Source: a virus
Taxonomy: Duplodnaviria > Heunggongvirae > Uroviricota > Caudoviricetes
DNA: 64,000 nt
Reading direction: 5' to 3' (one strand)
Virus record (IMG/VR): IMGVR_UViG_2875697941_000001
The position numbers were made by a program, and so were the translations under genes. Positions within the stretch are counted from its first letter, which is position 1, and every line of letters starts with the position of its first letter. Below the pieces are notes generated by a model that saw only the letters and a list, made by a program, of their open reading frames with translations, had not been told where the DNA came from and searched no databases. This document shows positions 7,029 to 8,527 of this stretch, piece after piece.

Positions 7029-7045
7029 ATTGCTCTAATTATAAC
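7029..7045 (+). promoter_or_regulatory. degenerate C1 operator-like half site
   Basis: ATTGCTCTAATTATAAC: first 11 nt match the operator consensus, rest diverges; lies between repL stop and the DUF3800-like gene. Confidence 0.25.
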
Positions 7046-7193
7046 CATGCATACTTTCAACACCTCTAGTTTGCCATGAGGCAAACTCATAGGTGTCCTG
7101 GTAAGAGGACACTGTTGCCAAAACTGGACGCCCCATTATTGCAATTAATAAACAACTAACGGACAATTCTACCTAACAATAAGTGGAGTTAAC

Positions 7194-7898
7194 ATGTTGA
7201 ACCGAAGAACATTTAATGTATTCTGCGATGAATCCTGTCACCTACTAAATGATCATAATAAAGTCATGGTATTGGGTGCGCTTTGGTGTCCCGGCACTAT
7301 CACAAAAAAAATTGCTAGAGACATCAAGGAATTAAAATTAAAACACAATCTAAAACCTGATTTCGAAATCAAGTGGACTAAAGTATCTGCGTCCAAAGTT
7401 GAATTTTACTTAGATGTCGTAGATTACTTCTTCAGCAACCCTGCATTGCGCTTTAGAGGTGTTGTTGTTCCTGATAAAGAGCAACTGGACCATGCTCGAT
7501 TCCATCAAGATCATAATACTTTCTATTATAAGATGTTTTTTTATGTCTTAAAAAACATAATAGAAAGTAACAACACATACAATATCTACCTAGATATAAA
7601 AGATACTTTAGGTATTGAAAAAATTGAGAAATTAAGAGGGGTTCTTCACAATGATCGCTATGATTACAATCATGAGTCGATAAACAGAATTCAACATATA
7701 CGATCTCATGAAGTGCAGCAATTGCAGCTAACGGATCTTTTCATTGGCGCGTTAGGCTACGTTCATCGAGGAATGAATAGCAACGCGGGAAAAATCCAAG
7801 TCATAAACAGAATAAAATCACATACAAACAGGGAGTTACTAAAAAGTACTCTTCCAACAGAAAGTAAATTTAATATTTTCGTGTGGGAGGCTCGCTGA
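7194..7898 (+). CDS. DUF3800-like protein
   Basis: 234 aa; N-terminal F.DES..h motif (NVFCDESCH) and downstream EIKWTKV block resemble DUF3800; gene is visibly AT-rich relative to flanks. Confidence 0.5.
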   Translation: MLNRRTFNVFCDESCHLLNDHNKVMVLGALWCPGTITKKIARDIKELKLKHNLKPDFEIKWTKVSASKVEFYLDVVDYFFSNPALRFRGVVVPDKEQLDHARFHQDHNTFYYKMFFYVLKNIIESNNTYNIYLDIKDTLGIEKIEKLRGVLHNDRYDYNHESINRIQHIRSHEVQQLQLTDLFIGALGYVHRGMNSNAGKIQVINRIKSHTNRELLKSTLPTESKFNIFVWEAR

Positions 7899-8362
7899 TG
7901 CTTCAAATGCCAGATTTATTGTACTTCAATGGAAGTTGGCAAGAGTATATAGACGATGTATATGATGTTGTTAGAGAAGATATTTTAATATCTAATATAA
8001 CGTTTAAGGGTCTCCCTGTTCGATTACGTTATTCACCGGAATATAATGGGAAAGAATTCGGATTTTGGCATTTAGTATCAGAGGGAAAAATAGAAGAAGA
8101 ACGTATACCCGATCTTGAACGGTGCAAGCGAATTCGCTGGATCGCGCACATGATAAGGAATTATAACCATTGCGATATATCATGTTGGTCTGAAAGACGA
8201 GGACCAACTGAAGAGTGGGTAATCTGGAATGAGTGTGAAAACTACGTTGTTGTGCTATCCGCACGTAGAGACTATTGGCTTCTCAAAACAGCCTATGTTG
8301 TAACCTATGACAGTAAAATCAGAACACTCAAACAAAGCAGAAAAAGAGCACTTGGGACATAA
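7898..8362 (+). CDS. hypothetical protein, operon partner of DUF3800-like gene
   Basis: 154 aa from ATG at 7898, overlapping upstream stop (TGATG); no recognisable motif; AT-rich. Confidence 0.45.
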   Translation: MLQMPDLLYFNGSWQEYIDDVYDVVREDILISNITFKGLPVRLRYSPEYNGKEFGFWHLVSEGKIEEERIPDLERCKRIRWIAHMIRNYNHCDISCWSERRGPTEEWVIWNECENYVVVLSARRDYWLLKTAYVVTYDSKIRTLKQSRKRALGT

Positions 8363-8527
8363 AAAGCTGAACCCGACACATATTGCTATGTATCGGGTTC
8401 GATCGCTCTTTCTACACATGGTAGATGAGTAATGCAAATCTAACCGATCTACTTTAGCTTTTCAATAGCTAGCTATAACTTTCCGCACATATTCTTCTGA
8501 TAATTCAGGGAGAGCGGTTGGGTTTTT

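Follow-up and report, generated by a model that had tools for sequence, protein, structure and literature searches.

The rlfAB gene pair of bacteriophage P1: a DUF3800 protein and its coupled partner as a candidate defence cassette

Described DUF3800 systems and the P1 gene pair

DUF3800 is a widespread protein domain without a demonstrated function that recurs beside type I restriction-modification (R-M) genes, beside retron type VII, Cas12a2/a3 and type VI-F loci, where it is described as an accessory or effector module, and beside eleven unexplained structured RNA motifs (DUF3800-I to XI; Weinberg et al. 2017) that accompany genes with the same Pfam domain. Published remarks on the domain call it RNase H2-like and note a “catalytic rearrangement”. 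A further set of comparators is provided by the PDCs, i.e., 145 candidate defence systems selected for their repeated occurrence within BREX, DISARM or type I R-M loci (“guilt-by-embedding”), most of them unvalidated (Payne et al. 2024 preprint, doi 10.1101/2024.01.29.577857); the same work cites PrrC as the textbook example of a system that is met inside type I R-M loci and hardly anywhere else. Here, we analyzed the gene pair rlfA and rlfB (rlfAB) in a 64,000-nucleotide stretch of viral DNA (IMG/VR record IMGVR_UViG_2875697941_000001, hereafter “the window”), in which an initial annotation, made from the sequence without database searches, had singled out two coupled genes as a possible accessory or defence module. 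Judging from genomic association only, we consider the chances slightly better than even that rlfAB is a defence or abortive-infection cassette.

Over positions 6900–8600, the window shares 99.9% identity with phage P1 (NC_005856), whose record annotates the two genes as rlfA and rlfB; by its sequence the window is bacteriophage P1, and window positions equal P1 coordinates minus 44546. Both genes lie on the plus strand. rlfA (7194–7898, 234 aa) follows a GGAG Shine-Dalgarno sequence at 7185–7188 and ends in a TGA (7896–7898) that overlaps the ATG of rlfB (7898–7900) within TGATG, the two genes sharing one base, while rlfB (7898–8362, 154 aa counted from this ATG) has its own Shine-Dalgarno sequence, GGGAGG, at 7885–7890. 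The open reading frame (ORF) list offers a GTG at 7883 as an alternative upstream start for rlfB; the MLxMP motif that opens RlfB homologues is conserved and supports the ATG at 7898. RlfA matches Pfam DUF3800 (PF12686) with 54.2 bits (cut-off 21; E = 3.5e-14) over profile positions 1–148 of 149. For RlfB, no Pfam or NCBIfam family was found, and 32 RlfB homologues likewise gave no Pfam match. The initial annotation, which had named rlfA/rlfB as the P1 genes at this position and described a TGATG-coupled pair of a DUF3800-like protein and a partner devoid of recognizable motifs, was correct on each of these counts.

Both proteins also belong to a catalogued family of defence candidates. RlfA is recognized by the PADLOC model for PDC-M04A (PDLC04353, E = 1e-95, residues 5–233 of 234) and RlfB by that for PDC-M04B (PDLC04355, E = 1.3e-51), plus 11 further M04B models; the only other PADLOC match of RlfA, a weak one, was to PDC-S51. 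The P1 pair shares with PDC-M04 its gene order, strand and adjacency, both component models are matched over their full length, and the R-M embedding on which the PDC catalogue is based was reproduced for rlfAB homologues (see below). Johnson et al. 2023 was considered as the source of the PDC names and rejected in favor of Payne et al. 2024. Overall, the idea of a defence module was strengthened, both by these matches and by the homologues found in type I R-M operons and defence islands of many phyla. The module also remains uncharacterized, as proposed, but it is less novel than it first appeared: the genes are annotated in the P1 record and the family is already catalogued as a defence candidate.

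RlfA has in common with the DUF3800 proteins of retron type VII, Cas12a2/a3 and type VI-F loci the Pfam domain itself, the DE motif, a QxxD-type motif and an RNase H2-like fold, and all of these proteins appear as immune-system add-on nucleases. In contrast to those loci, the neighborhood of P1 rlfAB holds no reverse transcriptase (RT), msr/msd, TPR domain, Cas gene or CRISPR array, and RlfA has a dedicated small partner instead. Specifically for retron type VII, the neighbors are repL and pmgF, with no Rfam match and no PADLOC retron model. No DUF3800-associated RNA motif was found either: a search with the Rfam models gave nothing relevant at E up to 10 between positions 6800 and 8900 of the window, and none at gathering score in four homologous loci (L003, L005, L008 and L012). 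Unlike in the loci that carry DUF3800-I to XI motifs, the constant companion of the RlfAB branch is a protein, RlfB. The P1 copy offers a clean, non-essential, two-gene version of DUF3800 in a classical genetic system, in which the function of the domain is directly testable; should the pair prove to be a defence system, it would add one item to the defence cargo of P1-like phage-plasmids.

Genomic company of the RlfAB family

Next, we evaluated the distribution and genomic context of the family with a pattern scan of one genome per species, which recovered RlfB relatives in 438 genomes; neighborhoods were derived from the best 80 loci. The RlfB-bearing genomes are spread over many phyla, with Saccharibacteria, Chloroflexota, Planctomycetota and Cyanobacteria among them. 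In 79 of the 80 loci, rlfB is immediately preceded on the same strand by an rlfA homologue, the remaining locus being cut by a contig end, and the two genes usually overlap by 1 or 4 bases. Type I R-M (Hsd) genes are present in 35 of the 80 loci, typically in the order hsdM-hsdS-rlfA-rlfB-hsdR, with HsdS immediately upstream in 19 of 70 loci and HsdR immediately downstream in 16 of 70. Other direct neighbors encode SIR2, TIR, GmrSD, PLD, Csy1, T5orf172, DUF1156 and methylase domains. In Algoriphagus pacificus (L003, 6470–15617), for example, a type I R-M methylase/specificity gene is followed by an RT, rlfA, rlfB, hsdR, one ORF and a Piwi-domain pAgo, and in Methylomonas the full hsdM-hsdS-rlfA-rlfB-hsdR array sits beside the transfer-messenger RNA (tmRNA) gene. 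The pair also occurs at the edges of mobile elements: in E. coli and relatives it adjoins the integrase of an integrative element (ICE) at guaA, and in Enterobacter ludwigii the integrase at the attachment end of a Rac-like prophage.

The position between hsdS and hsdR is the one occupied by the anticodon nuclease PrrC in the EcoprrI type I R-M operon, and RlfB has a tRNA-cleaving toxin as its nearest structural neighbor (see below). By a speculative functional analogy, these features suggest a similar logic for rlfAB, i.e., a second line behind restriction that would act once restriction is evaded or blocked. PrrC has no sequence or domain relation to rlfAB, however, and rlfAB consists of two proteins rather than one and also occurs alone, in P1, in ICEs and at prophage ends. 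Given these stand-alone copies, the pair cannot depend on an R-M partner.

Viral carriers are few. RlfB relatives were found in 19 of 2.9 million viral contigs, nearly all P1-like, and this scarcity, together with the linkage to cellular defence loci, argues that rlfAB is a cellular cassette acquired by P1 rather than a phage replication function. The two proteins differ in how fast they evolve: in 71 of 75 loci, RlfA is the better conserved of the two (median identity 50% vs 41% for RlfB, Wilcoxon p = 5e-12), and PADLOC covers the A protein with 2 hidden Markov models vs 12 for the B protein. Both contrasts, drawn from sequence comparison, fit a conserved effector (RlfA) accompanied by a fast-evolving sensor or regulator (RlfB). 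Across larger databases, RlfA retains 52–88% identity from Enterobacteriaceae to Bacteroidota, Nitrospirota and Desulfobacterota (5464 cluster representatives). For RlfB, a word-indexed search returned only 35 relatives and a profile search 1763 (1.84 billion representatives), and nearly all of the 150 profile matches listed are standalone proteins of about 150–190 aa.

One locus of the survey has an unusual gene structure. On the chromosome of an alphaproteobacterial metagenome-assembled genome (OZ241350.1; L094, 2440–7956), an uninterrupted frame of 1838 codons runs from a type IIG-like methylase (Eco57I/N6_Mtase) into DUF3800 and is followed by an rlfB homologue. This frame could be a restriction enzyme–DUF3800 fusion or an assembly artefact; a similar frame, of 1045 codons, occurs in a second locus (L073).

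A predicted nuclease and its small partner

Across 30 RlfA sequences from several phyla, the invariant residues are D12, E13, S14, C15, H16, E58, K60, W61, D134, K136, D137, Q178 and D181. These include the N-terminal DE motif (D12-E13) and the C-terminal QxxD motif (Q178-L-T-D181) published for DUF3800, both invariant in the RlfA family, as well as the family-specific motifs SCH, EIKW and DIKDT. The structure model of RlfA (predicted local distance difference test, pLDDT, 88.9) adopts an RNase H fold, RNase HII/H2-like on structure comparison and in agreement with the published view of DUF3800, in which D12 and E13 stand at the end of strand 5–14, D134 just past strand 127–133 and D181 within helix 175–191. 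This residue pattern is the one expected for an active type 2 RNase H-like nuclease, and RlfA is the predicted nuclease of the pair. RlfA resembles the type 2 RNases H (RNase HII/H2A/HIII) in fold but has no detectable sequence similarity to them, and SCH, EIKW and DIKDT are additions of its own. A profile search of PDB sequences with the RlfA family gave no real match, and an NCBIfam scan of RlfA no match.

RlfB is harder to place. Its invariant residues are P5, F56, W57, H58, R69, D72, R75, R78, W81, W97, Y116, V118 and L129, among which His58, Arg69, Asp72, Arg75 and Arg78, as read from the alignment, mark a constrained functional site. The RlfB model shows a weak RelE/colicin-D-like (BECR) fold resemblance, its top structural neighbor being colicin D, a tRNA-cleaving toxin. 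Compared to the RelE, YafQ, HigB and colicin D (BECR) RNase toxins, RlfB gives no Pfam or PDB sequence match and adds N- and C-terminal helices: Foldseek of the model against the PDB returned nothing significant, and the RlfB family profile matched no PDB sequence at E up to 10. In databases, the protein is named “oxidoreductase” (NCBI), “replication protein” (RefSeq, PHROG 16230) or “hypothetical”. To judge from the sequence searches, these names look like propagated labels, none having a Pfam or NCBIfam model behind it; “replication-linked”, “replication protein” and “oxidoreductase” are misleading for RlfB and could be corrected by functional work in P1.

The fold resemblance of RlfB bears directly on a first alternative, a toxin-antitoxin (TA) or addiction module in which one protein would be a toxic nuclease neutralized by the other, the benefit being stable inheritance of the P1 plasmid, the ICE or the R-M operon. 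The module is a compact two-gene operon with overlapping genes and a small partner, the nearest structural neighbors of RlfB are all toxins (RelE, YafQ, HigB, MqsR, BrnT and colicin D), the pair adjoins integrases at mobile-element ends, and the commonest alternative content of its site in P1-like elements includes the type I toxin HokD. However, no antitoxin-type DNA-binding domain (HTH, RHH or AbrB) was detected in RlfA or RlfB, the similarity to toxin folds is weak and without significance in Foldseek, and P1 already possesses phd-doc, a conserved P1 gene pair in the literature. We regard an addiction role as quite unlikely, with the proviso that it overlaps with the defence reading since many TA modules also act through abortive infection.

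Under the defence reading, rlfAB would be a self-contained, horizontally mobile two-protein conflict module, of which P1 carries a PDC-M04 copy as accessory cargo between its lytic replicon and its virion genes. RlfA, with its modeled RNase HII-like fold, would be a metal-dependent nuclease and the effector. RlfB, presumably made in fixed proportion through translational coupling, would bind RlfA as a regulator, sensor or specificity partner, and may itself be a RelE/colicin-D-like RNase. Infection by a foreign phage, or neutralization of an associated restriction system, would release the pair to cut RNA-containing duplexes or RNA needed for replication or gene expression, and the infection would be aborted. 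This specific division of labor between RlfA and RlfB is less likely than not, and we hold it more tentatively than the defence role as such.

A more novel version is a PrrC-like second line of a new type, made of two nucleases. RlfB would then be the colicin-D/RelE-like RNase, restrained or loaded by an RlfA that senses RNA–DNA hybrids or a phage factor; copies within R-M operons would fire upon inhibition of the type I enzyme, while the P1 copy, wired to the C1 circuit, would exclude competing phages upon induction or infection. We consider this version unlikely, but if true it would provide the first function for the DUF3800 domain, again in a classical genetic system.

The P1 cargo slot and the region upstream of rlfA

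In P1, rlfAB occupies a variable cargo slot of P1-like elements (7040–8865) that holds rlfA, rlfB and pmgF. When positions 6500–9400 of the window were compared to plasmids, partial matches covered only query positions 1 to about 540 and 2367–2901, and in elements without rlfAB the P1 homology resumes at about window position 8866. Among 680 P1-like plasmid records matching from repL to bplB, 98 carry rlfAB-pmgF and ~85% lack the pair, as do several isolated P1-like phages; P1-type rlfAB copies occur in 121 of 5426 complete E. coli genomes (about 2%), almost always on plasmids. These figures agree with previous descriptions, which count rlfA-rlfB-pmgF (“variable region 5”) among eight low-GC regions that differ strongly between P1-like phage-plasmids and find it deleted or replaced in several characterized P1-like elements. 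The GC content is 0.352 for rlfA and 0.383 for rlfB vs 0.499 for the whole window, and no stretch of the window as long as the pair (1.17 kb) has a lower GC content (0.5th percentile). The proposal that these AT-rich genes are acquired cargo is borne out by both this composition and the variability of the slot.

Other elements fill the slot with an 81-aa protein and HokD, with the 81-aa and a 198-aa protein, with Ail/Lom and the 198-aa protein, or with an insertion sequence (IS) element and the 198-aa protein (RCS47). Scans of the 81-aa, 198-aa and 68-aa proteins among these alternative contents gave no PADLOC match, and no defence match in Pfam. A dedicated defence hotspot was considered for the slot and dropped, these alternative contents being without defence matches. 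The third gene of the P1 slot, pmgF (8528–8824, minus strand), encodes a 98-aa protein without Pfam, PADLOC or NCBIfam match, of which the N-terminal 65 residues or so are common to the 198-aa protein (phrog_7522) that replaces PmgF in many P1-like plasmids; judging by this shared N-terminus, pmgF seems to be a short allele of a gene that varies among these elements, and not a constant morphogenetic gene. Between the convergent rlfB and pmgF, a hairpin with a 14-bp stem (8369–8400) and a T-run on the minus strand is likely a bidirectional terminator.

The location of the pair next to the lytic replicon is the origin of a second alternative. The P1 record expands rlf as “replication-linked function” with the note “possibly associated with lytic replication”, and in a lytic-replication accessory role the RNase H-like RlfA would process transcripts, R-loops or primers at oriL, inside repL, with RlfB as its helper. 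This is compatible with the placement directly downstream of repL/oriL and behind a C1-controlled operator, with the RNase H2-like fold of RlfA, with the published transcription of rlfAB along with early replication genes in P1vir infection, and with the RefSeq and PHROG 16230 label of RlfB. Yet the wording of the record points to position alone as the basis of the gene name, which is poorly supported, and the “replication protein” label, without an NCBIfam or Pfam model, appears derived from that name. P1-derived artificial chromosome (PAC) vector lytic replicons end at P1 coordinate 51736 or 51693, before the rlfA start at 51740 (P1 annotation), and expression of repL alone is reported to replicate reporter plasmids. 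Published CRISPR interference (CRISPRi) knock-down of rlfA or rlfB left P1 plating unaffected, and both genes were scored non-essential for lytic growth. Most P1-like plasmids and several phages do without the pair, its homologues sit in R-M operons that include no replicon, and viral carriers outside P1-like elements are nearly absent. Taken together, a replication role appears improbable, and rlfAB, being non-essential by CRISPRi and absent from most P1-like plasmids, does not behave as a pair of conserved P1 core proteins with a known non-defence function.

The remaining evidence comes from the region upstream of rlfA. The initial annotation had reported a degenerate C1-operator-like site there and took it as a sign of prophage-state control; the site is indeed annotated in P1, as the monovalent C1-controlled operator Orlf (former Op55; ATTGCTCTAATTATAAC, 7029–7045, plus strand), and its first 11 positions are identical to the C1 operator consensus. 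It belongs to the flank of repL, however: P1-like elements without rlfAB keep the 11-bp operator core (ATTGCTCTAAT, 7029–7039), and the P1 homology breaks directly after it. From these alignments, Orlf is part of the conserved repL 3′ flank, preceding whichever cargo is present, and the operator half-site is the left recombination boundary of the slot. Since the operator is kept where rlfAB is absent, it is not readable as a regulatory element that arrived with the cassette.

Orlf lies about 95 bp upstream of PrlfA, a weak sigma-70 promoter given as predicted in the P1 record (TTGCAA, 17-nt spacing, GACAAT; 7139–7167, plus strand), and the kilA-repL operon upstream is C1-repressed according to the P1 annotation. 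PrlfA scored below threshold in a consensus promoter scan, and for a promoter overlapping Op55 no candidate passed the same scan or was convincing by eye. The P1-specific leader between operator and rlfA folds into two stable hairpins (7068–7087 and 7092–7132, plus strand); for positions 7046–7200, the predicted fold reaches −42.9 kcal/mol (z = −3.94), and none of 200 shuffled sequences was equally stable. These hairpins could be a terminator or an attenuator ending the kilA-repL operon. The leader does not align with the sequences that precede rlfAB elsewhere, and a conserved leader RNA as part of the cassette was rejected, the region folding well in P1 without being conserved in the other copies.

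The C1 operator suggests a third alternative, in which rlfAB would be a lytic-phase weapon or counter-defence, expressed only in the absence of C1 and degrading nucleic acids of the host or of competitors (e.g., RNA–DNA hybrids of host defences or the genomes of co-infecting phages). The operator directly upstream, the C1-repressed early operon that the pair follows and its early transcription in P1vir infection would all suit this scenario. Against it stands the family as a whole, overwhelmingly cellular, embedded in R-M loci and rare in viruses, and the operator itself, as conserved backbone in front of any cargo, says little on what the cassette does. We give such a role a low probability.

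Several points nevertheless weigh against the defence or abortive-infection reading of rlfAB. Association with defence genes does not prove defence, our literature search (several spellings) found neither a paper naming PDC-M04 nor a report of protection by it, and the one validation study found covers other PDCs but not PDC-M04. The P1 copy differs from PDC-M04 as catalogued in residing in a phage-plasmid cargo slot instead of inside an R-M operon, and this slot, going by its sequenced contents, is a general accessory-gene slot: HokD and Ail/Lom, which share it, are not classical defence genes. At the protein level, the assignment of catalytic residues in RlfA relies on motifs and secondary structure rather than on superposition, and the RNase-like resemblance of the RlfB model is weak. 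Finally, with a C1-controlled operator in front of it and the C1-repressed kilA-repL operon further upstream, rlfAB may not be expressed in lysogens, an uncommon situation for a prophage-borne defence.

Further features were noted in the window. No convincing flanking direct or inverted repeats mark an insertion of the cassette, the search returning only short, two-copy, chance-like matches. A 12-nt sequence (AATTATAACCAT) occurs as an exact direct repeat in the right half of Op55 (7037–7048) and inside rlfB (8159–8170), probably by chance in AT-rich DNA. Three more close matches to the 17-bp C1 operator consensus were found at 3593–3609, 5264–5280 and 21352–21368, the first two coinciding, by coordinate conversion, with the annotated operators Oc4 and OrepL. 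Further patches with GC content <0.40 occur at about 2500–2700, 49900–50700 and 59800–60100 and may mark more acquired cargo; the first of these, by conversion from the P1 record, lies near the sim genes. Ant1/Ant2 (4142–5185) and KilA (5350–6150), the products of neighboring genes and both labeled “anti-repressor” in RefSeq, have clearly homologous C-terminal halves (…PEALRLAA.LAEQK…GNFAKV.GL.QN…), and on the basis of this shared half the Ant1/Ant2 and KilA genes are paralogues.

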